Source: an uncultured Planctomycetales bacterium
GTDB taxonomy: Bacteria > Planctomycetota > MHYJ01 > JACPRB01
Direction of reading: 5' to 3'
NCBI GenBank assembly: GCA_964526305.1
Contig: CAZGKV010000012.1
Coordinates: 8,131-72,130, forward strand
DNA: 64,000 bases
Shown here: positions 30,638 to 50,595 of the stretch, piece after piece
Position numbering within the stretch: position 1 is the first letter of the stretch
How the letters are laid out: every line of letters starts with the position of its first letter
Program-made: the position numbers and the translations under genes
The notes under the pieces: generated by a model
What the model was told of the DNA's origin: nothing
What the model saw: only the letters and a program-made list of their open reading frames with translations
The model's database searches: none

Positions 30638-30730
30638 TCCACGCCTTCGGAATTCTCGCAACATTTCACTAGATCATCCTGGGCTGCGCGCGCCACGGAG
30701 ATGGAGCCCAAGATTCAAGGTGAGAAATTC

Positions 30731-32875
30731 ATGGGGAGCATCATGTCGGTGAACATCGGACGAACGCTCTTCTTGCCGGCGATCGCCGCCGGCGTCTTGA
30801 CAGCGACGAGCTGCCACAAGCACCGAAAAGATCTCGAGGGTGGGGCAGGGGGTGGGACTCCCGATCCGACGATCTCGGAGATTACGCTCTTGGCCGGAGG
30901 ACTCGGTGGACCGGGGAGCATGGACGACACTGGCCCCCTCGCGCGTTTCTCCGCTCCTTCCGGTATCGCGACGGACGGCGCTAACCTCTATGTCGCCGAT
31001 TTCTTCAACTACACGATTCGGAAGATCGAGATCTCCACCGGGGAGACGACCACCCTCGCAGGATTACCGGGAAGGGCCGGATTTACCGATGGGATCGGGA
31101 GCGCGGCTCGATTCGGGGGTCCCCGCGGGATCGCCACCGACGGTACCAACCTGTATGTGGCCGATACGTTCAATCAGATCATCCGAAAAATCGTTCTCTC
31201 CACGGGAGAGGTCTCCACCCTCGCAGGCAGGGCCCAGGCCCCTGGAACGACGAATGGGACGGGGGCCGGCGCGCGATTCAGGAATCCTTGGGGTATCGCC
31301 ACGGACGGCACGAACGTCTATGTCACGGAACAGGGCAGTCACACGATCCGGAAGATCGTGATTTCGACGAAGGCGGTCACCACCTTGGCCGGCCTCGCAG
31401 GACAATCCGGCAGTGCCGACGGGATCGGAAGCACGGCGCGATTCAACAGCCCCCTCGGCGCCGCCACGGATGCGACGTACGTCTACATCGCCGATACCAA
31501 CAATCACACGATCCGGCAAGTCGAGATCGCGACCGGATCGGTGACGACTCTGGCCGGAGCCGCGGGCCAGTCCGGTGCGTCGGATGGGAGCTTCGGCGAG
31601 GCCCGATTCTCCCAGCCGCTCGGGATCGCAACGGACGGCGCGCGAATCTATGTGGGCGACTTCGGCAACACGGCTTTGCGGCAATTGGAAATCTCGATGA
31701 GGGCGGTGTCGACCCTGGCCGGATCACCGGGGCAACCCGGCAGCACAGACGGGACGAGGATCGAGGCTAGATTTCGGGCGCTGTTCGCCCTCGCAACCGA
31801 TGGGACGAACCTATTCGCCGCCGACGGAGGCTTCAACGGCACGGTACGGAAGGCCGTCCTCTCCACGGGCGTCGTGACCACTCTGGCTGGGCTCGCGGGA
31901 CAGCCCGGCAGCGCGGACGGAACCGGAGGAACCGCTCGATTCTCCGATCCGTCCGGCCTCGCGACGGATGGCATCAACCTCTACGTTGCGGACAAGATGA
32001 ATCACACGGTCCGGCAAATCTCTCGGGCTGCAGGCACGGTGACCACCCTGGCCGGCCTTGCGGGGGAACCCGGCAGCGCCGACGGAATCGGAGCCGGCGC
32101 TCGATTCAACCAACCTACCGGCCTTGCCACCGACGGCATCTATGTCTACGTCACCGACTTGGGGAACTCCACGATTCGAAGGGTCGTAATCTCGACAGGG
32201 GAAGTGCAGACCCTTGCGGGCGTCGCGGGGCAAGTCGGGAGCGAGAATGGGATCGGGGGAAGCGCGCGATTCTCCGGGCCGTCCGGTATCGCCACCGATG
32301 GCCGCACTCTCTACATCACCGATCAGAACAATCAAACGATTCGGCAGTTTGCGATCGCGACCTGGGTCGTGACCACACTGGCGGGCCTCGCAGGACAGAC
32401 CGGGAGCGAGGACGGGATCGGAAGCGCCGCGAGATTCTACCTTCCGGACGGCATCGCTACCGACGGCACCAATCTCTACGTCGCCGATGTCGCCAACAAT
32501 ACGATCCGCCAGATCGTGATCGCCACCGGCGCGGTCACCACCCTGGCCGGGCAGGCCGACATGGCCGGATGGTCCACCACCATCACGGCCGTCAACGGAA
32601 TCGGAACCGCGGCACGATTCAATCATCCCTTCGGCCTCGCCTTGGATGGGACCGACCTGTACATCTCAGAAACGCGGAGCCACACGATCCGCAAGCTCGA
32701 CCTACTCACGGCAGAGGTCACGACGCCGATCGGGGTTCAGGGGTATGGGCGAGTCGATCTTGGTCCGCTCCCTGGCACCATCAACTCTCCTGCCGGGCTA
32801 TGCGCAGCCGAAGGATGGCTGTTCATCTCGAGTCAGTGGGAGAATTCCGTCTTGATCGCCCCGATGCCGAATTAG
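30731..32875 (+). CDS. NHL-repeat protein (about 13 tandem NHL repeats), secreted or lipoprotein
   Basis: SD AAGGTGAG 6 nt before ATG 30731. Signal peptide ending LTATSC. Repeated GIATDGTNLYVAD...TIRKI...TTLAG units. An alternative upstream ATG exists at 30701. Confidence 0.8.
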   Translation: MGSIMSVNIGRTLFLPAIAAGVLTATSCHKHRKDLEGGAGGGTPDPTISEITLLAGGLGGPGSMDDTGPLARFSAPSGIATDGANLYVADFFNYTIRKIEISTGETTTLAGLPGRAGFTDGIGSAARFGGPRGIATDGTNLYVADTFNQIIRKIVLSTGEVSTLAGRAQAPGTTNGTGAGARFRNPWGIATDGTNVYVTEQGSHTIRKIVISTKAVTTLAGLAGQSGSADGIGSTARFNSPLGAATDATYVYIADTNNHTIRQVEIATGSVTTLAGAAGQSGASDGSFGEARFSQPLGIATDGARIYVGDFGNTALRQLEISMRAVSTLAGSPGQPGSTDGTRIEARFRALFALATDGTNLFAADGGFNGTVRKAVLSTGVVTTLAGLAGQPGSADGTGGTARFSDPSGLATDGINLYVADKMNHTVRQISRAAGTVTTLAGLAGEPGSADGIGAGARFNQPTGLATDGIYVYVTDLGNSTIRRVVISTGEVQTLAGVAGQVGSENGIGGSARFSGPSGIATDGRTLYITDQNNQTIRQFAIATWVVTTLAGLAGQTGSEDGIGSAARFYLPDGIATDGTNLYVADVANNTIRQIVIATGAVTTLAGQADMAGWSTTITAVNGIGTAARFNHPFGLALDGTDLYISETRSHTIRKLDLLTAEVTTPIGVQGYGRVDLGPLPGTINSPAGLCAAEGWLFISSQWENSVLIAPMPN
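30950..32700 (+). repeat. tandem DNA/protein repeat array (about 165-bp period) encoding NHL repeats
   Basis: Recurrent near-identical blocks such as GGGATCGCCACCGACGG...CTCTATGT(C/G)GCCGA...ACCCTGGC(C/A)GG through the ORF. Confidence 0.7.
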
Positions 32876-32887
32876 GAGGGAATCACG

Positions 32888-33559
32888 ATGACGCGAAGAA
32901 TCGCGGCCCTGACGGTCCTTGCCTTTACGGGATGCGGCGGAGGAGGCGGCGGTGGGGGAGAAGCAACTCCTCCCGTGGAGACGGTTCTGTTCCTGGACGA
33001 CTTCGACCGAATGGACGGCACGCTCGGGGAGCCGTGGCGACCGGTCTTTTTCGGCGAAACGGTGATGCCGACGGCTCGGATCGAATCCTCTCGGGCTTTT
33101 GCGATGGTGAGGTCGGCGGCCAGGAGCGCCGACGCGTTCCCCGCGACCAGCCTCCGCGTGACTTGTTCCTTCGTGTTCGGCGCTCCGGGATGGGCCGAGG
33201 TTCACGTAATTGCGGATGACGATGAGTCCGGCGACAACGGGTTTTGGGTGGCGGGACTTGACGGCGAAGCGAGTGAGGGAGGAACCTTGTTGATCGCTCA
33301 GGTCAGTACCGATGAGGGAACTCTCGGTCCCGACGCCGGACTGCTCCCCGGCACCACGTACTCCTTGGATGTGTTCTTCGATGGAGGGTCGATCACGCTC
33401 ACGATCCTGGATGCATCGGGGCAAACCTTGGCCCATCATTCTCAGGTCGTACCCGGTTTTCAGCCCCGATACTTCGGGTTCGCCATCGGGAACGACCGAT
33501 CCGGCTCGTTCACCGCTCTGGATAATTTCCGGGTTTTGGAACGTAAAAGGGGGACATGA
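32888..33559 (+). CDS. hypothetical lipoprotein
   Basis: SD AGGAGGG. Signal peptide with LAFTGCGGGGGGGG lipobox-like Cys followed by a Gly-rich linker, 223 aa. Confidence 0.6.
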   Translation: MTRRIAALTVLAFTGCGGGGGGGGEATPPVETVLFLDDFDRMDGTLGEPWRPVFFGETVMPTARIESSRAFAMVRSAARSADAFPATSLRVTCSFVFGAPGWAEVHVIADDDESGDNGFWVAGLDGEASEGGTLLIAQVSTDEGTLGPDAGLLPGTTYSLDVFFDGGSITLTILDASGQTLAHHSQVVPGFQPRYFGFAIGNDRSGSFTALDNFRVLERKRGT

Positions 33560-33888
33560 TGAGACGTTTCTCGCTGTTCGCGGCCCCGGTGGCGGTCCTT
33601 CTTGTCGGATGGGCCATCGGGAAAAACCTGAGCGTGCCGGCCGCTCAGGCGCAGAATCGCACCGGCGGCGATTCCATCCCGCAGCCGGTTCGCCAATGGG
33701 AGGTCGTTCCGGCCTCGAACGCGGACAACAAGGGGGCCGCGCGAGGAGGCTATGTCCTGTACAACATCACGACCGGAGAGAGCTATTTCATCGACAACAA
33801 CAACACGAAATGGATGCCGCTTCCTTTCCTGGGAAATCGCCCGGCCGATGGCACGCAGCTTCCCTTCTCCGAGAGAAAGTCAAAATGA
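33556..33888 (+). CDS. small hypothetical secreted protein
   Basis: Signal peptide MMRRFSLFAAPVAVLLVGWAIG, 110 aa, translationally coupled to the upstream lipoprotein gene. Confidence 0.5.
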   Translation: MMRRFSLFAAPVAVLLVGWAIGKNLSVPAAQAQNRTGGDSIPQPVRQWEVVPASNADNKGAARGGYVLYNITTGESYFIDNNNTKWMPLPFLGNRPADGTQLPFSERKSK

Positions 33889-33901
33889 GTCCGACGTCGA
33901 G

Positions 33902-34564
33902 CTATCCCCGCCTCGCCACCACGATTTCCGAGGGGATCGGCCAGGCCAGGTACTCGCGGGTGCCGACATCGAAGCCGGCGTTCCGGACCAGTCGATCCAT
34001 GACCACCGGGCGGCATCCTCCGAGCAAGAACGGGACGGCCCGGGTCGGGAGAGCGGAGTACAGGCGTTCGAGCCAAGTCCGGTCCTGCTCGTCCCTCTTG
34101 CTGAGATTCACGAGCGCCAGGCGGCCGCCGGGGGTCAGAACGCGTCGGAACTCGGCGAGAACGGGAGAGAGCTCGGCGAGGGGGATCAGGTCGAGCATGT
34201 AGCTGTTGTAGAGAACGTCGAAGCTCTTGTCGGGGAAGGGAAGGCGGCGGGCGTCGCCTTCCCGGAGATCGACGTGATCGATTCGCTCGGAACGCAGCCG
34301 GGCGCGAGCGCGGTCCAGCATTCCGGGGGACAGGTCAAGGCCGTGAACCTTCGTGGAAGATCCCACCCGCCTGGCGATTTCGACCGTAGTGACGCCGGGA
34401 CCGACCGCCACTTCGAGGACGCGCTCGCCCGGACGGATGGCCGCGAGATCGAGCCCCCGCATGCGGGCCTTCGCCTCGAGCGGCGCAACGCAACAGCCGT
34501 AGAAGGCGCTTATGAGATTGTAGGCGGTGCGGATCCGTTCGACGGGAGCGTGAGCTTCGATCAT
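33902..34564 (-). CDS. class I SAM-dependent methyltransferase (UbiE/COQ5-like)
   Basis: VLEVAVGPGVTT motif I, LPFPDKSFD and VLTPGGRL motifs, 220 aa. Start overlaps the stop of the upstream oxidoreductase. Confidence 0.75.
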   Translation of the reverse strand: MIEAHAPVERIRTAYNLISAFYGCCVAPLEAKARMRGLDLAAIRPGERVLEVAVGPGVTTVEIARRVGSSTKVHGLDLSPGMLDRARARLRSERIDHVDLREGDARRLPFPDKSFDVLYNSYMLDLIPLAELSPVLAEFRRVLTPGGRLALVNLSKRDEQDRTWLERLYSALPTRAVPFLLGGCRPVVMDRLVRNAGFDVGTREYLAWPIPSEIVVARRG

Positions 34565-35697
34565 GGCTTCTCCTTGCATACCGATCGATGAAACGTGCGA
34601 ATCGCTCCGACGACGGCGACGCGAAGGCCGGCGGAGGGCGATGGGGCCAGCCCGCGGCCCATGCGCTCGATCTGCCACTGGTACCATAGGCCGATGGCCG
34701 CCGCTTGGAGGGGCGCGAGAGTGAAACCGGCCGAGAGCCCGCGCGAGGCTCTCGAGGTTCCCGAGAGTACGCGGGCGGGGAAGTCCGGCTCGATGGCCAT
34801 CGGCCTCGCCAGGCCGACGACGTCGATCGCGCCTCCCGCGACCGCCGCTCGCATCGCCTCCGCCGTTCGGAACCCTCCGGTGAGCATGAGAGGCATCCGT
34901 GCCGTCGCGCGGACCCGTTCCGCGTATTCGAGAAAGTACGCCTCGCGCGCTCGGGTGCTGTGCGCGTGGGGGAAGAGAGACCACATCGCCGGGCGTTCGT
35001 AGGTTCCCCCGCTGATCTCGAGCAAGTCGACGCTCTCTTCGTTGAGCGCGCGGACGGTGTCCACCGACTCCTCGGCGGTAAAGCCGCCTCGTTGGAAATC
35101 GGCGGAATTCAGCTTGAGCCCGACCGCGAAGTTCGATCCCACCGCCGCGCGGACGGCGCGGAGGATCTCGAGGAGAAACCTCCGCCGGCGCTCGGGCGAT
35201 CCTCCCCAGCCGTCGGTTCGAAGGTTCGACCGCGGCGAGAGGAACTGGCTGATGAGATAGCCGTGGGCCGCGTGGATCTGGACGCCCGAGAAACCGGCGC
35301 GGGCGGCGACGGATGCGGTCGTAGCGAAGCGTCGGATGATCTCTCGAATCTCGGGCTCCGAAAGTGCGCGAGGAGGGGCGAAGGCGGGTCCGACTCCCTC
35401 GAGCGGGACGACGGAAGGGGCGACGGGATGGGTGCCCCGGATGCGCCCCGCCTGGCGCCCCGGGTGGTTGATCTGCATCCAAATCGGAACCGGTCGGGCC
35501 GAGCGGGCCCACGCTGCGAGGCCTTCGAAGTCTCGCTCGTCCTCCACCGCGACGTTGCCGGGCTCTCCGAGGGCTCGGCGGTCGACCATGACGTTGCCCG
35601 TGATGAGAAGGCCCGCGCCTCCCCTCGCCCATCGTGCGTAGAGACGCTCGAGGGCCGGGGTGGGCGCGTGGCGCTCATCGCCGAGCTGCTCGCTCAT
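34561..35697 (-). CDS. NADH:flavin oxidoreductase / Old Yellow Enzyme family
   Basis: OYE TIM-barrel motifs (QINHPGRQ, HAAHGYLISQFLSPRSN, GGFRT), 378 aa. The ORF in the list is extended by a spurious N-terminus. Confidence 0.8.
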   Translation of the reverse strand: MSEQLGDERHAPTPALERLYARWARGGAGLLITGNVMVDRRALGEPGNVAVEDERDFEGLAAWARSARPVPIWMQINHPGRQAGRIRGTHPVAPSVVPLEGVGPAFAPPRALSEPEIREIIRRFATTASVAARAGFSGVQIHAAHGYLISQFLSPRSNLRTDGWGGSPERRRRFLLEILRAVRAAVGSNFAVGLKLNSADFQRGGFTAEESVDTVRALNEESVDLLEISGGTYERPAMWSLFPHAHSTRAREAYFLEYAERVRATARMPLMLTGGFRTAEAMRAAVAGGAIDVVGLARPMAIEPDFPARVLSGTSRASRGLSAGFTLAPLQAAAIGLWYQWQIERMGRGLAPSPSAGLRVAVVGAIRTFHRSVCKEKP

Positions 35698-35765
35698 CGC
35701 CGCCTTGGCGATGCGGTTGGGAAGGGCCGCGCCGCACGGAAGGCGAAGCGGGACGCGGAGAGGGC

Positions 35766-36002
35766 TCACTTCGGCCTCAGACCCAGGATACCCCCAACGG
35801 CCCCCGCGAGGCCCTCGGCGCGGAGGAGTCCTACACAGCAGATCTCGCCGCCGCAATCGAGGGTGACGATGGCGAGCTTCTCTCCGGGACGGAAGCCGGC
35901 CCGCTCCCGCACCTCCTTGGGAAGAACGATTTGTCCCCGGGCGTCCATGGCGGTCATCCCGGCGACGGAACAGCACGCGGAACTCTTGGCGGTGTGTTTC
36001 AT
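35766..36002 (-). CDS. AbrB/MazE/SpoVT-family DNA-binding protein (Cys-rich)
   Basis: GQIVLPKEVRERAGFRPGEKL swapped-hairpin motif. Contains CC pairs (SACCS, GEICCVG). First gene of the AbrB-OYE-MTase operon on the minus strand. Start codon uncertain. Confidence 0.55.
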   Translation of the reverse strand: MKHTAKSSACCSVAGMTAMDARGQIVLPKEVRERAGFRPGEKLAIVTLDCGGEICCVGLLRAEGLAGAVGGILGLRPK

Positions 36003-40389: not shown

Positions 40390-42230
40390 GAATCCCTCTT
40401 TCCTGGTTGCGGGACTACGTCGACGTCGGCTCCCCGGCCGAGGTCGCCAAGACGCTGACCTTCGCGGGCGTCGGGATCGAGTCCATCGAAGGGGACGTCC
40501 TCGAGCTCGAGATCACGGCGAACCGGGCCGATCTCCTCTCGGTGTTGGGCGTCGCCCGCGAGATCGGACTCCTCACGGGTCGGCCCGTTCGCGAACCGGA
40601 CGTCCGGTATGCCGAAGCGGACGCCCGGTCCGTACCCGTGCGCGTGGAAGACCGTATCCTCTGCCCGCGGTACATCGCCCGATGCGTAAGCGGCGTCCGG
40701 GTGGCCCCTTCGCCCCCGTGGATGCAGGAGAGGCTTGCGGCCGCGGGACTCCGGCCGGTGAACAACATCGTCGACATCACGAACTTCGTTCTTCTCGAAT
40801 GCGGACAGCCGCTTCATGCGTTCGATCTCGCCGTCCTACGGGGACCGGAAATCGTCGTGCGGCGCGGATGCGGGGAGAAGATGACCGCCATCGACGGAAA
40901 GGTGTGCGAGCTCGACCGCGAAATGCTCGTCATCGCGGATCGGGAACGCCCCGTCGCGATCGCGGGAATCATGGGCGGACGAGAGAGCGAGATCTCCGAG
41001 AGGACGCGCGACGTGCTTCTCGAGAGCGCGCAGTTCGATCCGGTCTCGATTCGCCGGACCTCGCGGCGTCTGGGACTTACCAGCGAATCCAGCTACCGCT
41101 TCGAGCGGGGCGTCGATTGGTCGGCGGTGGAATGGGCTTCCCAGCGGGCGGTGCAGCTCGTGGCGGAGATGGCGGGGGGGACGGTCGGCTCGGGAGCGGT
41201 CGATGTCGCCCCGGAGGCCCCCCAGCTGCGAACCATCGCGTTTCGACCGGCCCGCGTCGCTCGAGTCCTCGGGTTGGATTTCCCGGAGTCCCGAATCCGC
41301 GAGATTCTGGATCGTCTCGGATGCCGGCGGCAGGGCGAAGCGCTGATCCCACCGGCTCGACGCCGCGATCTCAAGTCGGAGATCGACCTCATCGAAGAGA
41401 TCGCGCGCGTGGAGGGGTACGATCGGGTCCCCTCGGATACGAATCTCGGCACGCGCGTCGTCACGGATCGCCGGGAGGATCTCGTGCGCGAGGAAATCCG
41501 AACGGCCCTCACCTCCATGGGCTGCTTCGAGGCGCTGACCTGGAGTTTCTCGGAGGTTCGGGACGATCGATGGGCGGCGGGCGAGCCCGTCGCGCTCCGG
41601 GATCCGGCAGGTCAGGTCTACCGGCGCCTTCGGAAGTCCCTGGGAGCGGCCCTGGTGGAAGTCCTCCGGACCAACGAGAGCTATAAGGAACCGCTCGCTC
41701 CGGTCTTCGAGATCGCCAAGGTGTACTTCGAGCACGGAGAGGATTTCGGAGAGCGAACGCTTCTCGGGATCGCCACTCCGGAGGGGTACCAGCATCTCAA
41801 GGGACTCGTCGAGCGAACCCTCGGGCGGGTCGGCTTGGGATTGCGGGACGTGACGGCGCACCTGTCCGAGGCGGGCGTCGCAGAGATCGACTTCGAGGAG
41901 GTCGTCGCTAAGGCGCGTCTCGAGCGGTCCTTCCGGGACTTCTCTCGAAAGCCGCTGGTCGCCCGCGACCTCGCCGTCGTCTTGGACGACGCGGTCTCCT
42001 GGTCCGATCTGGAGTCGTGCGTCCGTGCCGCCGCTCCCTCGAACCTGGAGCGATTGGATTTCTTCGACGTCTACCGCGGCAAGCCCGTGCCCCCTGGAAG
42101 GAAGAGCGTGGCGTTCTCGATGACGTTTCGCGCCCCGGACCGCACGCTCACGGGAGAAGAAGTGGACGGCGCCGTGCGGAGAATCGTCGAGGCGATAACG
42201 GCGAAGCTTCGGGGACAACTTCGTTCCTGA
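40386..42230 (+). CDS. pheT: phenylalanyl-tRNA synthetase beta subunit (short form lacking N-terminal OB-fold tRNA-binding domain; start codon uncertain)
   Basis: B3/4, B5 and FDX-ACB domain motifs (TANRADLLSVLGVAREI, GIMGG, FDVYRGK). The conserved LSWLRDYV N-terminus is encoded in-frame upstream of the first canonical start (TTG 40407). No ATG/GTG/TTG lies between the in-frame stop at 40356 and 40407. Confidence 0.8.
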   Translation: MRIPLSWLRDYVDVGSPAEVAKTLTFAGVGIESIEGDVLELEITANRADLLSVLGVAREIGLLTGRPVREPDVRYAEADARSVPVRVEDRILCPRYIARCVSGVRVAPSPPWMQERLAAAGLRPVNNIVDITNFVLLECGQPLHAFDLAVLRGPEIVVRRGCGEKMTAIDGKVCELDREMLVIADRERPVAIAGIMGGRESEISERTRDVLLESAQFDPVSIRRTSRRLGLTSESSYRFERGVDWSAVEWASQRAVQLVAEMAGGTVGSGAVDVAPEAPQLRTIAFRPARVARVLGLDFPESRIREILDRLGCRRQGEALIPPARRRDLKSEIDLIEEIARVEGYDRVPSDTNLGTRVVTDRREDLVREEIRTALTSMGCFEALTWSFSEVRDDRWAAGEPVALRDPAGQVYRRLRKSLGAALVEVLRTNESYKEPLAPVFEIAKVYFEHGEDFGERTLLGIATPEGYQHLKGLVERTLGRVGLGLRDVTAHLSEAGVAEIDFEEVVAKARLERSFRDFSRKPLVARDLAVVLDDAVSWSDLESCVRAAAPSNLERLDFFDVYRGKPVPPGRKSVAFSMTFRAPDRTLTGEEVDGAVRRIVEAITAKLRGQLRS

Positions 42231-42299
42231 CCCAGTCGATTTCGCCACCCTCCTCCGCCGCTTGCGAGTACCATTCTCGTACCCGGGGAATCCAGAATC

Positions 42300-43886
42300 G
42301 TGGAAGATCGGCGACTCTCTACTTGTGCCGGCTGGGCTTCCGAGGCCGTCTTCGCACCCGAAGGCCGCTCGGTCGCCTTCGTCGAGGAACGAGGCTCGGC
42401 CCGTCGCATCGTAATCGACGAGACTCCGGGCGAGTGGTTCGACGAAGTGCGTACTCCGTTTTTCAGCGCCGATGGTTCGCTCTGTTCCTACGGGGCCCGA
42501 AGGGATAGTACCTGGACCGTCGTCACCAACGGCCGGCCGGGCGAAGCGCTGGAGGAACTCGGACTCCTCGGTCTCGATTCCGCGGAACGCGAGGTGTATT
42601 ACTTCGCCAAGATCTCCGGATTCGTTTTCTGCGTCGGAGGGGGGGAACGCCGACAGGCGCAGGGGCGGTTCGCCTCCGCTCGAAGCTACCCGGCCTATTC
42701 CGACGACTTGAAGGTCTACGTTCGCGGAGCGGATGCGCGCGGGATTCCCCGCTTCGGCACCTTCGAAGGTCAAGGCTGCGCCGAATTCGAGGAGATCGGT
42801 TTGTTGTCCTCGTCGCCCGATGAATCGCGACTGGCCTTCACCGCGAAGAAGGGGGGGCGATGGTACGTCGTTCTGGACGGCAAGCGTCGAGGGGCGTACG
42901 ACGGCGTCGCGGGATTGCGGTGGACTCCCGATGGTCGGGAATTGACCTACGCGGTGCGGCAAGGCTGGAAGTGGCGACTCGTCATCGGCGATCAATCCGG
43001 GCCGGAGTTCGACGAAGTCGTCGGGCCGTACTGGAGCCGGGACGGAAAGCGCGTCGCCTACGAAGGCCGCGCCGGGAGTCGTTGGTCCTTCGTCCTGGAC
43101 GGGCGGGTCGGCGCCGCCTTCGATTGGACGATGCACGGAAGTCTACTCTTCAGCCCCGACGGAACTTCCTGCGCCTATCTGGCGGGGCAACGAGATCGGA
43201 CTTTTGCGGTGGTGGACGGTCGTCGAGGAGCAGGCTCGGACGCCATCCGCAGTCTTACCTATTCCCCGGACGGCAAACAGGTGGCCTACGTCGCGCTCCG
43301 GGGAAAGCGCCAAGCGTTTGTCTTGGGGAACGACGTTCTTGCGGAGGCGGACCAGGTATCGCTATTGGGCCTGGAGGAAGGCCCACGGTATGTGACCGTC
43401 GAACGCGGCGCCCACTATTACGTGCGAGGGGATCGAAAGGAGGGCCCTTTCGAAGAGATCAGAGTCGAAGGCGAGTACCCTCGCGGGCCGATCCTGCCGC
43501 TGGCGAGGAAGAACCGCGAGTGGCTCGTGATGGAGGGCGAGCCTCCAGGCCCCGGCTACGACGAGATATCCCGAGTGACCTATCTCCGGGGGCGAGACGC
43601 GTTCGCCTTCTGCGGACGGCGCGGAGAGCGCTCTCGACTGGTGGTGGGGGGGCGGGAGGAGCCGACGTACGACGCGATCGGCCAAGTCCTTCCCTCCTCG
43701 GACGGGTCCCAGGTGGCCTATGCCGCCCGCTCGGGAGAAGAGTGGTTCCCCGTGATTCGAGGGGAACGAATGGGGAATTCCTGCGACCGGATTTGGGAGC
43801 TTCGCTTCAGTCCGGACGGTCGGCGCCTTCACTGGGGGGCCCAGTGCGGCTCGGAACTTTGGTGGAAAACGGCCCGGATCGGGTGA
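42300..43886 (+). CDS. PD40/WD40-like beta-propeller repeat protein
   Basis: Repeated (F/Y)SPDG(K/R)...(A/V)Y blocks throughout, 528 aa, no signal peptide. GTG start. Confidence 0.6.
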   Translation: MEDRRLSTCAGWASEAVFAPEGRSVAFVEERGSARRIVIDETPGEWFDEVRTPFFSADGSLCSYGARRDSTWTVVTNGRPGEALEELGLLGLDSAEREVYYFAKISGFVFCVGGGERRQAQGRFASARSYPAYSDDLKVYVRGADARGIPRFGTFEGQGCAEFEEIGLLSSSPDESRLAFTAKKGGRWYVVLDGKRRGAYDGVAGLRWTPDGRELTYAVRQGWKWRLVIGDQSGPEFDEVVGPYWSRDGKRVAYEGRAGSRWSFVLDGRVGAAFDWTMHGSLLFSPDGTSCAYLAGQRDRTFAVVDGRRGAGSDAIRSLTYSPDGKQVAYVALRGKRQAFVLGNDVLAEADQVSLLGLEEGPRYVTVERGAHYYVRGDRKEGPFEEIRVEGEYPRGPILPLARKNREWLVMEGEPPGPGYDEISRVTYLRGRDAFAFCGRRGERSRLVVGGREEPTYDAIGQVLPSSDGSQVAYAARSGEEWFPVIRGERMGNSCDRIWELRFSPDGRRLHWGAQCGSELWWKTARIG

Positions 43887-43956
43887 CCTCCGGCGATTTT
43901 GTTGACACTCTCGTCGAACGAGGGCTAGAATCGATGCGGAAGTTTTCCGGGGAGTC

Positions 43957-44607
43957 ATGGAAGAGCGAGTCCGCCTGGGGGCCATGCTGGTCAAGGAGAA
44001 GCTCCTTACCCCGGAGCAGCTCAAGATGGCCATGGACTTCCAGAAGGAAGTCGGGGGCAAGCTCGGCGCGATCATCGTCAAGTTGGGATTCGTCGAGGAC
44101 TCGACCCTCGTCAATTTCATCGCCCGCCAACAAGGGTTGGAGGTGGTCGAACTCGAGGAGCTCATCCTCCCCGAAAACCTGGTCCGGAAGATTCCCCGCA
44201 AACTGATCGACAAGCATACGGTGGTCCCGATCCAGTTCCACCGACATACCCTGACCATCGCCACGTCGGATCCGTTCGATTACGAGGCGATCGAGGAACT
44301 CCAGCTGGCGTTGACGGACACCAAGATCGAAATGAAACTCGCGCCGCGCTCGCAGATTCTGAAATCGATCCGGGAGCACTTCGCCAGGGAAGCCTCGGGC
44401 GAAACACCGGTCAAGGAGAAGACCAAGGACGAACTGCTCCGGGAACTCGAGGAGGAGGAGAAGCCCGCCTCGGATCGCATCAGTCCTCTCCAACTTCGGG
44501 AGGCGCTGATTCCCCTCCTGATCGAGAAGGGCCTCATTACGCGGGAAGAGCTCGTGCGGAAGTCTCGGGAAATCGAGGCCGCTCGGGAGAAGGAAGCCGC
44601 GAGATAG
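43957..44607 (+). CDS. stand-alone T2SSE_N/MshEN-like domain protein (possible c-di-GMP receptor)
   Basis: Two helical sub-repeats resembling the GspE N-terminal domain (LGAMLVKEKLLTPEQLKMAMDFQ..., LIEKGLITREELVRK). 216 aa with an acidic linker. Confidence 0.5.
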   Translation: MEERVRLGAMLVKEKLLTPEQLKMAMDFQKEVGGKLGAIIVKLGFVEDSTLVNFIARQQGLEVVELEELILPENLVRKIPRKLIDKHTVVPIQFHRHTLTIATSDPFDYEAIEELQLALTDTKIEMKLAPRSQILKSIREHFAREASGETPVKEKTKDELLRELEEEEKPASDRISPLQLREALIPLLIEKGLITREELVRKSREIEAAREKEAAR

Positions 44608-44613
44608 CCACCC

Positions 44614-45960
44614 ATGCCGGAGATCAAGTTGCGGGAGATTTCCAAGGGACTGGCCGGCGTTCAAGTTCCCGGGGATCGGACCGAGCGCCTGGTCGAGGGG
44701 CTGATCGAGTCGATCAAGAACGCGCTCCTGTCGGGGAAGGACGTCACGATTCCCGGTTTCGGCAGCTTTTCCATCGCTGGGGAAGACGGGAACCCCCAGC
44801 CCGCGCTCTACCAGGCCAATCTCTACGGGGACGTGGCGACGCACCTCGGCGAGCCGGATGTGAACCGCGTGAAGCCCATGGTGGGGGCGGTGCTGGAGGC
44901 CGCGACGTCGTCTCTCCTCGAGGGGAAAAAGGTCGTCCTGGAGGACTTGGGGACCCTCGAGGTCGCCCGCGAGCGCCCGCAGATCGAGAAGCAGCCCAAA
45001 GGACATCGCCTGATCAAACCGTCGATGTCCGTTCTCCGTTTCGGGGCCGAGCGTCCTCTCCTGACGCCCGCGGGTGAGGGGCGAGTTCTCTTCACGCCCT
45101 CCGACGATGTCCGGAAGCGCGTCGAGACGTTCAAGGAGTCGAGCATCATGCTCGTCGTTCCGGAACGGGACTTTTTCGTGAAGACGCTCGAGTACTATTT
45201 CCAGAACGCGGGCTGGGACATCGAAATCCACACCAAGGTCGTGGATGCGCTTTCCAAGGTAGAGTCGAACAAGGCGTACCTGGTCATCTTGGACGCTCTC
45301 TTCGGGGACCACCAGCAGTTCTGCTATGCGCTCAAGATGAGGCGGGAGACGAATGCGGTGCCGCTCATCCTTCTCCATCCCAGCGAATCGGCGCTGAAGA
45401 GCGTGCCGGATGTGTCCATCGTGGGCGACGAGAACCTCGCCCAGCCCTTCGAATTCCGCCAGTTGTTGGATTTGGCGGACGCGGAGATCATCCGGGCGGC
45501 GGAGGAGGAGCTGCTGTTCGATCAGCAGCTCAACATCCATCTACCCACGGACGAGGCCGCGGTGGAAAAGGCGATCGACACCGTCCACAAGCTCCTGGAA
45601 TCGAGCGGGCTGAACGAGGAAGGGCAAGTGGCGGTGAGCGCCGCCTTCCGCGAGGCGGCCGTGAACGCCGCCCAGCACGGGAACAAGTACAAGCGCGACA
45701 AAAAGATCGAGATCCAGTATCTCCTGGATTCGGAGAAGATCACCCTCGTGGTTCGGGACCAAGGTCCCGGGTTCGACCACGAACAGTTCGTGAAATCGGG
45801 GGCGACGCGCGACGCGCTCACGGCCGCCCGGGAGCGTCACGCTCAGGGACGCATGGGAGGCCTCGGGATCATGCTCATGCTCCGCTGCTGCGATCGGCTG
45901 GAGTACAACAACCAAGGGAATCAGATCACGCTGACGAAGCGCCTCAAAGCGCGCGAGTAG
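44614..45960 (+). CDS. multidomain regulator: tandem HU/IHF-like DNA-binding domains, receiver-like domain, RsbW-type HATPase_c (anti-sigma/Ser kinase) domain
   Basis: N-terminus has GKDVTIPGFGSFSI (HU arm motif) and a second HU-like unit (VVLEDLGTLEV). Central region LVVPERDFFVKTL...LVILD is receiver-like. C-terminus AFREAAVNAAQHGN...VVRDQGPGFD is the GHKL ATPase motif of RsbW-like kinases. Confidence 0.6.
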   Translation: MPEIKLREISKGLAGVQVPGDRTERLVEGLIESIKNALLSGKDVTIPGFGSFSIAGEDGNPQPALYQANLYGDVATHLGEPDVNRVKPMVGAVLEAATSSLLEGKKVVLEDLGTLEVARERPQIEKQPKGHRLIKPSMSVLRFGAERPLLTPAGEGRVLFTPSDDVRKRVETFKESSIMLVVPERDFFVKTLEYYFQNAGWDIEIHTKVVDALSKVESNKAYLVILDALFGDHQQFCYALKMRRETNAVPLILLHPSESALKSVPDVSIVGDENLAQPFEFRQLLDLADAEIIRAAEEELLFDQQLNIHLPTDEAAVEKAIDTVHKLLESSGLNEEGQVAVSAAFREAAVNAAQHGNKYKRDKKIEIQYLLDSEKITLVVRDQGPGFDHEQFVKSGATRDALTAARERHAQGRMGGLGIMLMLRCCDRLEYNNQGNQITLTKRLKARE

Positions 45961-45966
45961 ATTCCG

Positions 45967-46698
45967 CTACGCCCGGGACTCCGCGACGAGTCGATTGGCG
46001 CGGAGGAGGGAGTCGAACGTTCCGGCATCGGTCCACCAGCCGTCGAGAAGCTCCCACGAGAGCGACCCGTTTCGGATGTAGGCGTTGTTCACGTCGGTGA
46101 TCTCGAGCTCTCCCCGCGCGGAGGGTCGCAGCGTCTTGACGATTCGATAGACCTCGTTGTCGTACATGTAGACGCCCGTGACGGCATAGCTGGATTTCGG
46201 ACGGCGGGGCTTTTCCTCGATCCCGACGACCTTTTTTCCCCGAAGCTCCGCGACCCCGAAGCGCTCGGGATCGGGCACCTCCTTGAGGAGGATCTTCCCG
46301 CCCGACTTCTGCCGTCGAAACCGGTCGACGGCGGGGGCGATGTCGGCCGAGAAGATGTTGTCTCCGAGAACGACGCACACCCGCGCGTCCTCGGCGAAGT
46401 TTTCGGTTAGGCCGAGCGCCTCTGCGATTCCCCCTTCGCCGTCTTGATACGTATAGTGGAGATCTTGGAGCCCGAATTCGCGGCCGTTCCCGAGGAGCTT
46501 GAGGAAATCGCCCGCGAACGGCCCGCCCGTTACGATCATGATCTCCCGGATCCCCGCTTTCACGAGCTTCTCGATCGGGTAGTAGATCATGGGTTTGCGA
46601 TAGACGGGCAAGAGGTGTTTGTTCGTGACGCGGGTGAGCGGGCTCAAGCGGGTGCCGAGTCCCCCCGCCAGCACGATTCCCCGGATTTCGGCCCTCAC
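45967..46698 (-). CDS. sugar-phosphate nucleotidyltransferase (RmlA/glucose-1-phosphate thymidylyltransferase-like, short form)
   Basis: [23 protein letters not shown], and EEKP/GVY motifs, 243 aa, GTG start at 46698. Confidence 0.75.
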
Positions 46699-47459
46699 GC
46701 GATCCGTCCTTCGGTCGGGCTCGAAGGGGTCGCGTACTCCTTCTTCGGAATCCTCCCCGCTTCGAATGCGAGTCGGCCCGCCTCGCACGCGAGTCGGACG
46801 GCGCGTGCCATGGCGACCGGGTCTCTCGATTGCGCGACCGCGGTGTTCAGGAGCACTCCGTCGGCTCCCAGCTCCATTGCGATCGCGACGTCGCTCGCCG
46901 TGCCGACGCCCGCGTCCACGATCACGGGTACCTTCACCCTCGAGAGGATGATCCGGATGTTCGTCGGATTCAAGATGCCCAATCCGCTTCCGATGGGAGC
47001 GCCCAGCGGCATGACGCAGGCCGCTCCGGCTTCTTCGAGACGCAGCGCGGTCACGACGTCGTCGCTCGTGTACGGCAGTACCGTGAATCCCTCTTTCGTC
47101 AGGAGCTTGGTCGCGACGAGGAGCTCGGGGAGGTCGGGGTAGAGGGTCTTCTCGTCCCCGATGACTTCGAGTTTCAGCAGCTCCGTTCCCAGGGCTTCGC
47201 GCGCGAGTCTCGCGGTCCGAACGGCCTCGTCCGCGGTGAAACAGCCCGCCGTGTTGGGGAGGAGGCGGATCTTCGCGCGATCGATCCAGTGGAGGAGGGA
47301 ACCCTTCGTGGTGTCCTGGAGATCGACGCGCCGGACGGCCACGGTGACGCAGTCCGTCCCGGAGGCCTCGTGGCACCGGGCCATGATCTCCGGGGAAGGA
47401 TAGCGTCCGGTGCCCAGGATGAGTCGCGAACGAAACTCGTAGCGTCCGATCTTCAGCAC
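46695..47459 (-). CDS. thiG: thiazole synthase
   Basis: [20 protein letters not shown]-terminus and [13 protein letters not shown] motif, GTG start, 254 aa. Confidence 0.88.
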
Positions 47460-47659
47460 TATCCGCCGCCTACAAAATGGACCACTTCGATCCGATCGCC
47501 CTCGGAGATCTTCGTCTCGGCGTGGCGCCCCCTCGGGAGGACCTGCCGGTTGACCTCCACCGCGACGGGTCTTCCCTCGAGGCCGAGTTCGCGCACGAGG
47601 TCGGCCACCGTCGAGCCCTCGCGCGCCTCGCGGCGCTCCCCGTTGACCCATACCATCAT
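47459..47659 (-). CDS. thiS: sulfur carrier protein ThiS
   Basis: 66 aa ending in GG-Gly (MMVWVNGE...VVHFVGGG), immediately upstream of thiG. Confidence 0.8.
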
Positions 47660-47670
47660 CGGGGGCGGGA

Positions 47671-48555
47671 TTATACCCGCGTCGCCATCTCCAGCGCCAG
47701 TCCGTGTCGCAATCCGTAGGCGCTGGTCCGGAGTTCCTCGAAGCCGCCGGCCCGCATGGCCTCGCCCACGACGACGAGGCCGGCCACGATGATGTCCGCC
47801 CGCGCCGGATCCAGCCCTCGGACTCGGCGGCGCTCTCCGATCGTCATCGCGGCGAGTCGATCGCGCAAGGCGTCGACGGATCGGAGCGGGAGGCGGCACC
47901 CATGGGCGGCCTCGGGTCCGATCTTCCGGCGACGACGGATCGCCGCGGCCGTCGCGATCGTTCCTCCGATTCCCACCAGATCCGAGGGGAGTTTCCGGCC
48001 GCGCACCAAGCCGCGGAGCTCGCGTGCGGCCCGGTCTCGCGCGGCCCGGAGTTCCTCGGGGCGCGGGGGGTCGGTTCGAAGAAATGCTTCCGTGAGGACG
48101 ACGGCACCCACATCGACGCTCCGACCCCGACCCCGCACGATGAGCTGGGCGCTTCCTCCTCCGACGTCCAGGACCGCGCAGGATTCTGAGCCGCCCGTGG
48201 CTCCGACGTAGCCGAGCCGGGCCTCCTCCTCGCCCGAAAGGATCCGGACGGGCAGGTCGAGCTCCTTCCGGCATCGGCGGACGAAATCCCCGGCGTTTTC
48301 GGCCATGCGAAGGACGCGCGTCCCGACGGCCTCCAGCGTCCAGGCCCGCCGTCGTCGCGCGAGTTCGCGGAAACCCACGAGGGCCTCGAGCGTCCGGTCC
48401 ATGGCCTCGGCGGAGATCCTCCGGGTCTTCTCCACCCCCTCTCCGAGCCGCGTGATCGTGACTCGCTCCGCGACGGGGACGAGTCGGCCCCGTTTCGAAT
48501 CCACGATGAGAAGCTTGACGGAATTCGTCCCGACGTCGATGGCGCCGAGGATCAT
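47671..48555 (-). CDS. ppx: Ppx/GppA family phosphatase (N-terminal actin-like domains only)
   Basis: [14 protein letters not shown] and DVGGGSAQL motifs, 294 aa. The six-frame ORF is extended by a spurious upstream run. Confidence 0.8.
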
Positions 48556-49934
48556 GAGGTTTTCAGAATGAAGACGGTCGCGAGGGTCAGGTAGAGCGTG
48601 ATGTTGACGGCATCGTTGATGGCGGTGATGAACGGCCCGGAGGCGACCGCGGGGTCGAGCTTCACGCGCTGGAGAAGGAAGGGCATGATGGCGCCCATCG
48701 TCGCCGCCACCGTGATGCTCGTCGTCATCGATCCGCAGACGATCGCGGCGATCCGGAGGGCCTCGAACCGATGGGGGGAGGGCTCCGATCGGTGGAGCAG
48801 CATGGCCATGAGCCCCGTGATCGCTCCCGCGAAGACGCCGATGATGATCCCGACGCGGAATTCGGCCAAGACGACTCGGAGTCCCTTTCGCAGGGAGAGT
48901 TCCCCTGTGGCCAGGCCCCGCACCACCATCGTCGAGGACTGGAGGCCGACGTTTCCGCCCATCGCCATGATTACGGGAATGAAGTAGGCGAGGGTGAGGG
49001 TGGCGAGCGTCCCCGCGCTTTCGTACCCCTTCATGATCCAGGCGATCGTAAGCTCGATGACCATCGCGGCGGCCAGCCAGGGGATGCGTGCCTTGAGACG
49101 CGCGAGGAACGGGGCGTGGATCGGATGGACATGCCCCGCGCCTGCGAGCTTCATGATGTCCTCGCTCGCCTCCTGATGGACGACCTCCAAGATGTCGCGC
49201 ATCGTGACGACGCCGAGGAGCTTCATCTGGCCGTCCACGACGGGGATCGCCCGCAGGTTGTACTTTTGAGCGATGCGCGCCACTTCCTCCTGGTCGAGGT
49301 GGGCTCCGACGAAGGTGACTTCCCGGCGCATGAACTTGGCGACCGGCGTATCGGGTTCCGCCCGGAGGATCGCGTAGAGGGAGCATACGCCCCGAAGATG
49401 GTCGGACTCGTCCACGACGTAGACGTATTCGATGGTCTCCGCGTTCACCGCGCCCTGGATCGCCTTGAGCGTCTCGTCGGCGGTGAAGGCTTCGGGAACG
49501 GCGACGAAATTCAGGCTCATCCGGCCGCCCGCCGTGTTCTCGGGGTACTTGCGGAGTTCCTCGATTTCCCGAGCCTGGGCTCGGTCGAGCCGCATCATCA
49601 CGGAGGTCTCTTTCTGCACGGGCAGATGGTCGAGAATGTCGGCGACCGCGTCGGCCGGCATCTTCTCGATCACCTCCTTGAGGCGGGCTTCCCCCAGGCG
49701 GTCGGCGATGGCGGATCGGGCGTCTTTGGCCAAAGCGGCGAGCACCTGCGCCGCGGCCGCGGGTTCCAGGATTTCGAGGATGCGGACGCGATCTTCCAGG
49801 GCGAGATCGTCCAGCAGATCCGCGAGGTCCACCGGTTGGATGGTCTCGAGAAGTTCCCGGAGCCTGGCCGGATCCAGTCCTTCATCCTGGAGGATTTGCG
49901 AGAGGCTTTCGGGACCCGGTTCGTCCCCGCTCAT
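48552..49934 (-). CDS. mgtE: magnesium transporter MgtE
   Basis: N-terminal MgtE_N, tandem CBS domains, C-terminal 5-TM MgtE domain ([19 protein letters not shown]). The start could be at 49934 (MSGDEP) or 50000 (MAEIL). Confidence 0.85.
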
Positions 49935-49998
49935 CTCCGGATGATAGCCCTTCCGAAATTCGGTTGTCAACGCGCGTGGGAGCGCTAGAATCTCCGCC

Positions 49999-50595
49999 AT
50001 GGGCCCGTGGATGAAATTCGGGCTGGTCGGATTCCTCGTCGCCGGGGTCGTCTCGTTGACGGTGGTCTCGACCGCCGAGTCTCGCCGGCGGGCCAGGCAC
50101 CACCATTGTCGAAACAACTGCCGGAGGCTCGGAGAAATCGCAGGGCAGGAGATTTCCGCGAACAAGCTTACGAAGACCGGCCGTCTCTTTTGGCATCAAG
50201 TTCGATTTCGCGCCTACACCGCCGCCCGCCAGAAGATTCCGGCGGCCACGGTCGAAGAGGAAGAGGCGAAAGACTGCACGCAGGTCCCGTGCCGGAATCC
50301 GAAACACGAGCATGCATGGAAGTCGATCTGGCCCGATCCCTTCGTCTGCCCGGTATACGGCCGGACCGTTTCGAATCGCGAGGATCCGGAGACCATCGAC
50401 TACCGGGGTCCACGCGTGCTCCCCGTTCCGGTGCCGGAGCGGTTCCTGATCGGGGCGGACCGGCCCGGCAACCATCCGGACGGATCGGGATTCGTGCTCT
50501 ACTCCGACCGATCGATCCAGGAGAAGTTCGAGGTCCAGCCCACCGAATCGGGGACAGGACTGTGGAAGCAGGCCGGGTCGCTTCTGGGGGACTAA
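49999..50595 (+). CDS. hypothetical membrane-anchored protein
   Basis: N-terminal TM helix (MKFGLVGFLVAGVVSLTVV). Cys/His-containing body. No recognisable family. Confidence 0.4.
   Translation: MGPWMKFGLVGFLVAGVVSLTVVSTAESRRRARHHHCRNNCRRLGEIAGQEISANKLTKTGRLFWHQVRFRAYTAARQKIPAATVEEEEAKDCTQVPCRNPKHEHAWKSIWPDPFVCPVYGRTVSNREDPETIDYRGPRVLPVPVPERFLIGADRPGNHPDGSGFVLYSDRSIQEKFEVQPTESGTGLWKQAGSLLGD

Follow-up and report, generated by a model that had tools for sequence, protein, structure and literature searches.

A two-gene module of Planctomycetota pairing a stand-alone MshEN protein with a predicted RsbW-type kinase fused to a tandem HU/IHF-like domain

We analyzed two neighboring genes in a 64,000-nucleotide stretch of DNA from an uncultured Planctomycetales bacterium (contig CAZGKV010000012.1; the whole 64-kb stretch is called the window here, and its G+C content is ~63%). 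The first gene encodes a stand-alone MshEN protein of 216 amino acids (aa). The second, co-directional with the first and starting 6 nucleotides (nt) after its stop codon, encodes a 448-aa protein in which a truncated and a complete HU/IHF-like unit are joined in a single chain to a degenerate receiver and a Bergerat-type ATPase/Ser-kinase domain related to RsbW and SpoIIAB. We propose, judging the case to be evenly balanced, that the two genes form one signaling operon, in which a cyclic di-GMP (c-di-GMP)-sensing adaptor would control a DNA-tethered Ser-kinase/anti-sigma protein. Full-text literature searches found no published description of this HU-kinase/MshEN module, in agreement with an earlier note on this DNA, made from the sequence alone, which had not recognized the architecture as a described family. 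All four domain types are well known. What appears to be undescribed is the fusion of a DNA-bending HU/IHF module to an RsbW-type kinase, and likewise a stand-alone MshEN receptor in the role of dedicated operon partner to such kinases. The module, which is conserved across Planctomycetota, would belong to the partner-switching/anti-sigma kinase kind, its novelty being the adaptor at the input and the DNA-binding part appended to the kinase.

Both open reading frames (ORFs) were found where the earlier note had placed them (Table 1). The same two genes were called independently in three other assemblies of identical sequence, and the identical 216-aa protein is annotated as its own gene in other assemblies. 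The four-part architecture proposed for the 448-aa protein was borne out by Pfam, fold and alignment evidence. The alignment comprised 74 full-length homologues of 41–83% identity, and both Bac_DNA_binding and HATPase_c_2 were matched in 74 of 74; the best-conserved parts were the kinase and the receiver-like region, and the HU region was the most variable. The AlphaFold2 model of the whole chain reached a predicted local distance difference test score (pLDDT) of 85.8 and a predicted template modeling score (pTM) of 0.71. Existing database labels for the protein are automatic only (“ATP-binding protein”, “serine/threonine-protein kinase RsbW”). The earlier note had named a frameshift revealing separate genes as an outcome that would overturn its reading. 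That separate HU, response regulator and rsbW genes were joined by a frameshift or an assembly error has a negligible probability: the reading frame is continuous, the 74 homologues align across the whole chain, more than 100 full-length homologues of 430–460 aa come from unrelated samples, and the gene call is identical in independent assemblies. A frameshift or fusion artefact was rejected on the last two grounds.

The gene immediately upstream encodes an MshEN/GspE-N-like domain only, as the earlier note had described, and its product passes the curated c-di-GMP-motif model of NCBI. Pfam MshEN (PF05157) matched aa 60–147 with 68 bits against a cutoff of 23.1 (E 7e-19), and the NCBIfam c-di-GMP_motif model NF053729 matched aa 6–58 with 67.6 bits against a cutoff of 38, covering profile positions 1–53 of 53. 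The latter region holds two candidate 24-residue MshEN motifs, RLGAMLVKEKLLTPEQLKMAMDFQ and KLGAIIVKLGFVEDSTLVNFIARQ, with a 5-residue spacer between them. Besides the window protein, 9 of 10 diverse partner proteins exceeded the NCBIfam cutoff. The protein carries neither an ATPase nor a glycosyltransferase domain. Its C-terminal part includes a helical segment in which several columns (e.g. aa 183–192) are kept in at least 80–90% of 63 orthologues; this segment looks similar to an MshEN half-motif, which would be a third and degenerate one, and may be an element for docking. Because the automatic annotation of JGI for the small protein reads “PilB”, a connection with type IV pili or with type II secretion was considered; it was rejected, no ATPase domain or pilus gene being present in any inspected locus.

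A scan of one genome per GTDB species yielded 115 loci, of which 80 were kept and 78 had sufficient flanking sequence for a pairing count. An MshEN gene was located directly upstream on the same strand in 71 of the 78 loci (70, plus L032, where only an over-extended kinase ORF had hidden the MshEN gene). At four further loci an MshEN-like gene was present later in the operon, downstream of the kinase gene, and only three loci had none. The gaps between the MshEN and kinase genes were mostly 0–25 nt, with one pair overlapping by 4 nt. The pairing holds down to a kinase identity of 31–35%, and also where a STAS domain takes the place of HU (L089, L090). The functional coupling of the two genes, which the earlier note had suggested, is thus supported by adjacency across the family.

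All homologues carrying an organism name came from Planctomycetota metagenome-assembled genomes. Every named locus of the species scan was likewise from Planctomycetota, a few records being labeled merely “uncultured bacterium”, and the carriers include Candidatus Kuenenia stuttgartiensis, Candidatus Brocadiia and complete Candidatus Uabimicrobium genomes. A profile search of 1.84 billion representatives returned 195 clusters (50% identity) at E ≤ 1e-30. In the clade of the window, the pair follows thrS-infC-rpmI-rplT-pheS-pheT, which is the slot of ihfA in E. coli; this linkage to pheT is confined to the closer clade.

The C-terminal domain of the 448-aa protein was assigned to the GHKL ATPases of the anti-sigma/Ser-kinase type in the earlier note, and this assignment stands. 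Pfam HATPase_c_2 (PF13581) scored 79.7 bits versus 27.4 (E 2.4e-22), a sequence search of the PDB retrieved RsbW (6m36, E 1e-5), and Foldseek gave template modeling (TM) scores of 0.8–0.92 to SpoIIAB and RsbW. Three boxes are invariant in the 74 sequences: the N-box E347..N351AAQHGN, the G1 box D382xG384xG386F and the G2 box G415GLG418. The ATP/Mg2+ motifs therein are intact, and Ser-kinase activity and sigma-factor binding are predicted for the domain. Scores for the NCBIfam RsbW (40.9 versus 145 bits) and SpoIIAB (31.8 versus 135 bits) models place the protein outside orthology to either.

The segment between the HU units and the kinase was described as receiver-like in the earlier note; this stood as a statement on its fold and failed for its catalytic residues. 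By phmmer it matched the PhoP receiver (1mvo) with E 1.6e-6, and Foldseek gave TM scores of 0.72–0.81 to the receivers of PhoP, KdpE, MicA and FrzS, the FrzS receiver being itself atypical. Pfam Response_reg (PF00072) scored 12.3 bits, under the cutoff of 30.2, and was matched at E ≤ 0.01 in only 25 of the 74 homologues. Asp227, at the phospho-acceptor position, is invariant and is the sole catalytic residue left. The acidic pair is replaced by Pro183/Glu184, a conserved replacement; the Thr/Ser position is His255 in the window protein and variable in the family; and the catalytic Lys is replaced by Gln277, which is at least 90% conserved. We therefore call the domain a pseudo-receiver, because four of the five catalytic positions are lost and Asp227 alone survives. 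It is strongly acidic (net charge −9), and its helix alpha5 runs on as a conserved linker helix (aa 281–298).

These residues bear on the possibility that the protein is an ordinary response regulator of the LvrC type, in which a histidine kinase would phosphorylate Asp227 and the MshEN gene would be neighborhood noise. The invariance of Asp227 fits such a protein, and the best structural match is indeed LvrC, a phosphorylatable Rec-Bergerat anti-sigma protein (PMC13269768). However, the replacements at three of the four lost positions are conserved, no Mg2+ site is expected because the acidic pair is lost, Response_reg stays under its cutoff, no histidine kinase gene was adjacent in any inspected locus, and an MshEN gene adjoining the kinase gene in 71 of 78 loci cannot be put down to noise. 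We regard this explanation as very improbable, and a canonical response regulator was rejected on the catalytic residues.

At the N-terminus, Pfam Bac_DNA_binding (PF00216) matched two stretches of the 448-aa protein (47.2 bits versus 22.4). The two consecutive HU-fold units that the earlier note had proposed are homologous to each other, with a probability of 98% and E 1.7e-13 in hhalign (aa 1–64 for unit 1). Unit 1 lacks the arm and the C-terminal helix; its profile match covers HU positions 14–53, and hhalign aligned it to HU/IHF at 97.9% over columns 3–56 only. Unit 2 was aligned to HU/IHF at 98.6% over columns 3–90 and to single-HU homologues at 99.6%, and it is the counterpart of the single HU domain in the shorter relatives. 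Ahead of its C-terminal helix (aa 164–172), unit 2 contains a beta-hairpin insert of ~17 residues (aa ~146–162), which is present in the tandem forms and may replace the strands missing from unit 1. NCBIfam scores for IHF-alpha/beta and other equivalogs were far under cutoff, slightly better for IHF alpha/beta than for HU, and the HU-CCDC81 clade models were under cutoff as well (bac_2 17.1 versus 35, bac_1 13.1 versus 26, euk_1 17.9 versus 26.1).

The arm motif was the point on which the earlier note erred: GKDVTIPGFGSF, which it had taken for the arm of the first unit, is the beta1-beta2 turn of unit 1, and the arm belongs to unit 2. The arm has a net charge of ~+3 and a tip of the form Pro128-x-Gly130, in which Pro128 aligns with the intercalating Pro63 of HU (HU numbering assigned by eye). 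Among the 74 sequences, Pro128 is kept in 52, Gly130 in all 74 and His131 in 66; Arg or Lys dominates at 121, 126, 129, 132 and 135, and positions 120 and 125 are acidic. A second beta-arm with an intercalating proline is absent, unit 1 matching the HU profile at positions 3–56 only. The HU body is one-armed, because unit 1 stops after beta2, which leaves unit 2 as the sole carrier of an arm.

The AlphaFold2 model of aa 1–176 (pLDDT 87.9, pTM 0.80) had as its best match in the PDB the engineered single-chain IHF scIHF2 (2iie/2iif; E 1.5e-8), with TM 0.70–0.71 normalized to the query, and ordinary HU/IHF chains covered only ~80 residues of the model at TM ~0.7. This superposition agrees with the suggestion in the earlier note that the tandem could mimic an HU dimer within one chain, and the model supports a single-chain HU/IHF pseudo-dimer with one arm.

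The N-terminus proved to be the modular part of the family. Five forms were distinguished around the pseudo-receiver-kinase core: (a) the core with a tandem HU, 430–460 aa, the form seen in the window, in Kuenenia and in Uabimicrobium; (b) the core with one complete HU, 366–394 aa, as in L039, where Pfam HU matched with E 1.9e-22 over profile positions 2–89 of 90; (c) at ~27 loci, the core with one HU, followed by a STAS-Zn-ribbon-HATPase_c_2 gene and a second, longer MshEN-like gene; (d) the core with an N-terminal STAS instead of HU (P0285, P0293, P0300, P0305, P0308); and (e) the core with a long N-terminus lacking a domain match, or without an N-terminal extension. In P0280, P0282 and P0290 (651–691 aa), ~330–370 aa of N-terminus, of low complexity or unassigned and unmatched in Pfam, stand in place of HU or STAS.

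In the STAS-fused variants, the MshEN gene is again immediately upstream (L089, L090), in one case with an overlap of 4 nt. The conserved functional pair is therefore MshEN plus the pseudo-receiver-kinase core, since the pairing persists when HU is replaced by STAS; MshEN pairs with this core and not with HU as such. The STAS domains of the fused paralogues keep the Ser motif NS[ST]G[LM]G, which we take to correspond to the phospho-serine site of SpoIIAA and RsbV. Because STAS is fused or adjacent to the core in sister clades, with the Ser motif kept, the system would belong to partner switching, and the partner-switching input suggested in the earlier note is thereby strengthened.

Several features of individual loci are worth recording here. 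In L058 (10999–12054) and its equivalents (L057–L082), one gene directly downstream of the HU-pseudo-receiver-kinase gene encodes a protein that starts with STAS and ends with a HATPase_c_2-like domain, with a linker rich in Pro/Ala and a CxxC...CxxC zinc ribbon in between; the long MshEN-like gene (L058 12185–13567) follows it; the product of the STAS gene looks like an anti-sigma antagonist fused to a kinase-like domain. Near the STAS-pseudo-receiver-kinase/MshEN pair of L089, an HD_5/HD (HD-GYP-like) gene and a PilZ gene were found (L089 9888–11385), which would represent extra c-di-GMP context around a family member. At L090, where the kinase is STAS-fused, a separate gene for a canonical 98-aa HU (3789–4085) lies two genes upstream of MshEN, and chance may not be the reason that HU is found near the module.

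With these sister clades in view, the slot after pheT can be considered. The 448-aa protein might be primarily an architectural, IHF-like protein in the ihfA position, its other domains merely tuning how it holds DNA, e.g. by clamping or oligomerising in an ATP-dependent manner, with MshEN as a ligand-independent structural partner. The gene order thrS-infC-rpmI-rplT-pheS-pheT-(MshEN)-HU resembles the E. coli pheST-ihfA operon, the NCBIfam preference for IHF alpha/beta over HU points the same way, and the MshEN motifs are partly degenerate. On the other hand, the linkage to MshEN is far more general than that to pheT and survives the loss of HU, conservation is highest in the kinase and the pseudo-receiver rather than in HU, and the STAS components of sister operons point to partner switching. 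We consider an architectural protein improbable.

For the signaling operon that we propose, the steps would be as follows. The MshEN protein would bind c-di-GMP through its N-terminal four-helix motif and dock on the core in a ligand-dependent manner, the acidic pseudo-receiver being the likeliest surface; the pseudo-receiver is a likely protein-binding switch, because normal phosphorylation is no longer possible. Docking would toggle the ATP-dependent RsbW-like domain between two states: in one it would act on a STAS-type antagonist, by phosphorylation or binding, and in the other it would keep a partner (e.g. a sigma factor) sequestered. The one-armed HU/IHF pseudo-dimer would place this switch on DNA and probably bend the DNA once, and in relatives with a single HU, dimerisation of the kinase would produce the same HU body. 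Compared with LvrC, an adaptor protein would take the place of phosphorylation as the input, and the net outcome would be second-messenger control exerted at the chromosome.

A number of observations weigh against this mechanism, beginning with the ligand. The published MshEN motif, RLGxx(L/V/I)(L/V/I)xxG(L/V/I)(L/V/I)xxxxLxxxLxxQ, occurs twice with a 5-residue spacer (PMC5013675), and we scored the window protein and its 63 orthologues by regular expression against strict and relaxed versions of it. The window protein has the right spacing and agrees at most positions, and the strict motif was not matched in it. Its motif II conforms to the relaxed version and has Lys instead of Arg at position 1; motif I misses the relaxed pattern at position 10 only, where Lys stands for Gly/Ala/Ser. 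Among the 63 orthologues the motif positions are kept only in part, and two relaxed motifs together were found in 0 of the 63. There is also a precedent in XspE, which has a degenerate MshEN domain that does not bind c-di-GMP (PMC12943098). Given that the window protein and 9 of 10 diverse partner proteins nonetheless exceed the NCBIfam cutoff, binding of c-di-GMP is plausible and leans towards probable.

The partner and the DNA contact raise similar points. No STAS gene was found in the six-frame translation of the 64-kb window by a hidden Markov model (HMM) or phmmer, a search in which sigma-factor and phosphatase genes were not sought; the HMM was built from 19 STAS domains of the sister clade together with SpoIIAA and RsbV, and the latter two sequences served as the phmmer queries. 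A tblastn search of the window with STAS-ZnR-HATPase proteins gave nothing significant, and no STAS gene occurred within ±10 kb of the tandem-HU loci. The HU region of the window protein has a net charge of 0 and an isoelectric point (pI) of 6.8, unit 1 is acidic (net charge −2), and the position matching HU Arg55, by the same by-eye numbering, is acidic. The output resembling a nucleoid protein, as suggested in the earlier note, is putative. Finally, since HU is exchangeable with STAS, the N-terminal domain could serve in protein interaction or as a substrate instead of binding DNA.

This last point defines what we judged to be the main rival, the other rivals being less likely or refuted: the same signaling logic would apply, with an HU module that does not bind DNA and is instead a degenerate fold used for dimerisation, protein binding or as a kinase substrate. 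It would account for the substitution of STAS for HU with the same core and MshEN partner, for the neutral N-terminal region with its acidic, armless unit 1, and for the N-terminus being the least conserved part of the protein; arm-truncated tandem domains of the HU-CCDC81 clade likewise show a dramatically different composition of the DNA-binding region (PMC5499826). It is harder to reconcile with a full-length unit 2 whose arm is basic and conserved, with Pro at its tip and a Gly that never varies, with single-HU members that reach E 1.9e-22 across the whole Pfam HU model, or with a family median of net charge +3 and pI 9.1 for the HU region. We rate a non-DNA-binding HU module as unlikely.

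The boldest form of the proposal is that the protein is a natural single-chain, one-armed IHF/HU turned into an ATP-dependent kinase/anti-sigma switch under a dedicated MshEN c-di-GMP receptor, standing at the ancestral ihfA position and representing a new nucleoid-associated signaling class. We regard this form as speculative and doubtful; if true, the level of the second messenger would act directly on the local architecture of the chromosome, or would decide whether a sigma factor is held or set free on the DNA. If the logic of the signaling operon holds, it would add a new class of c-di-GMP output, in which partner-switching kinases are reached via an MshEN adaptor, it would provide a natural one-armed counterpart of engineered single-chain IHF that could inform asymmetric DNA bending, and it would constitute a conserved regulatory module specific to Planctomycetota. 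Planctomycetota have an unusual cell biology and condensed nucleoids, and they include the biotechnologically important anammox bacteria and Uabimicrobium with its phagocytosis-like behavior. One conserved core carrying a tandem HU, a single HU or a STAS N-terminus offers a ready comparative system for experiments.

The features of the locus are collected in Table 1.

Table 1. Genes, domains and candidate elements of the MshEN/kinase locus, in window positions.
Feature	Position	Strand	Description	Basis
Sigma-70-like promoter candidate, TTGACA-18 nt-TAGAAT	43902..43931	+	11/12 consensus positions	
MshEN gene	43957..44607	+	216 aa, stand-alone, without ATPase domain	ORF, Pfam, NCBIfam
Predicted c-di-GMP-binding four-helix region, aa 6–58	43972..44130	+		NCBIfam NF053729
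MshEN_C / T2SSE_N-like alpha/beta subdomain, aa 60–147	44134..44397	+		Pfam PF05157, profile 2–89 of 90
C-terminal helical segment, aa ~176–205 (LREALIPLLIEKGLITREELVRK)	44482..44571	+		Conserved columns among orthologues
HU(truncated)-HU-pseudo-receiver-HATPase_c_2 gene	44614..45960	+	448 aa, single chain	ORF, domain calls
HU unit 1, aa 1–62	44614..44799	+	alpha1, alpha2, beta1, beta2 only	
HU/IHF unit 2, aa 66–172	44809..45129	+	Complete HU fold	
Sole beta-arm, aa 117–143 (VARERPQIEKQPKGHRLIKPSMSVLRF)	44962..45042	+	In unit 2	Column counts
Pseudo-receiver, aa 176–298	45139..45507	+	(beta-alpha)5 fold	PhoP alignment, Foldseek
Bergerat ATPase/Ser-kinase domain HATPase_c_2, aa 311–442	45544..45939	+		Pfam, Foldseek

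The promoter candidate lies inside the 70-nt gap between the preceding gene and the MshEN start codon. It is the sole such site in 42200–46200, for which shuffled sequence gives 0.4, and is a candidate by consensus match only. The preceding gene, located between pheT and the MshEN gene (42300–43886, + strand), encodes a 528-aa PD40/WD40-like beta-propeller repeat protein with a weak match to the NCBIfam TmcD family (E 3.9e-25, yet far under cutoff); the relatives L001, L002 and L007 lack a gene at this place, which suggests that it was inserted into the conserved string in a particular lineage. On the − strand, a 577-aa ORF (43807–45540) is antisense to both genes of the module; no homology supports it, and it is an artefact of the kind usual at high G+C. 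Upstream of thrS, the window at ~30701–36000 (L088 2222–7523) encodes a 724-aa NHL-repeat protein, a methyltransferase, an Old-Yellow-Enzyme-type oxidoreductase and a small MazE-like antitoxin-domain protein. Neither a second HU gene nor a GGDEF motif was found in the 64-kb window.

Downstream, a convergent block on the − strand (45967–50165) comprises NTP_transferase, thiG, thiS, Ppx/GppA and mgtE, and from thiG onward it is also kept downstream of the module in L001. The entries of the window ORF list in this region are over-extended ORFs of high-GC sequence (e.g. 469 aa versus a called gene of 243 aa). In a clade of 44–46% identity (L002 / L020 11893–21335), the module is located between pheT and the dcw (division and cell wall) cluster, which comprises mraZ, rsmH, PBP (penicillin-binding protein), murE/F, mraY and ftsW; in the window it is followed instead by thiG on the opposite strand.

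Compared with known systems, the 448-aa protein shares the HATPase_c_2 fold and the ATP motifs with RsbW and SpoIIAB, of which it is not an orthologue, being ~3 times larger and carrying HU and a pseudo-receiver. With scIHF2 it shares a whole HU/IHF body in a single polypeptide (aa 1–176). The scIHF2 protein is man-made, with two arms and one subunit inserted into the other, whereas the window protein is natural, a simple tandem with a single arm, and fused to signaling domains. In the HU-CCDC81 clade, a tandem HU with truncated arms was proposed to be an intramolecular dimer (Burroughs et al. 2017, PMC5499826); in the window protein, by contrast, only unit 1 is truncated and unit 2 keeps a full arm, and neither kinase nor receiver nor anti-sigma occurs as a word in the text of that paper. 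Described MshEN fusions involve ATPase, glycosyltransferase and “other domains”, the terms STAS and anti-sigma being absent (Wang et al. 2016, PMC5013675). The layout of the MshEN domains of MshE, PilB-type ATPases and NfrB, two 24-residue motifs with a 5-residue spacer ahead of a T2SSE_N-like subdomain, is approximated by the window protein, which departs from the strict motif and differs further in standing alone and in being paired with a kinase gene.

A receiver and an RsbW-like kinase are combined in one chain in HsbR of the HsbR-HsbA system of Pseudomonas. Elsewhere, c-di-GMP acts on the sigma/anti-sigma pair RsiG-sigmaWhiG in Streptomyces and on the DNA-organizing protein CdbA in Myxococcus (PMC7156744), which are precedents for both kinds of target, through receptor folds that differ from MshEN, namely a coiled coil in RsiG and a ribbon-helix-helix in CdbA. 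None of RsiG, CdbA and HsbR is known to use MshEN, HU or a pseudo-receiver, and the likeness is one of analogy only. For the C-terminal half, the closest solved relative is LvrC from Leptospira interrogans (PDB 9qih; Nat Commun 2026). In LvrC, a receiver that LvrB phosphorylates on D53 precedes, within a single chain, a Bergerat anti-sigma domain resembling RsbW (PMC13269768). The LvrC receiver is canonical, whereas that of the window protein is degenerate; LvrC has no HU and no MshEN partner, and an overall TM of only 0.26–0.39 indicates a different arrangement of domains. Finally, E. coli ihfA is likewise an HU/IHF-family gene that follows pheT in the same conserved gene string; in our module, however, an MshEN gene intervenes (in the window also the PD40-repeat gene), the linkage is limited to one clade, and the HU gene of the window is fused to ~280 aa of signaling domains.

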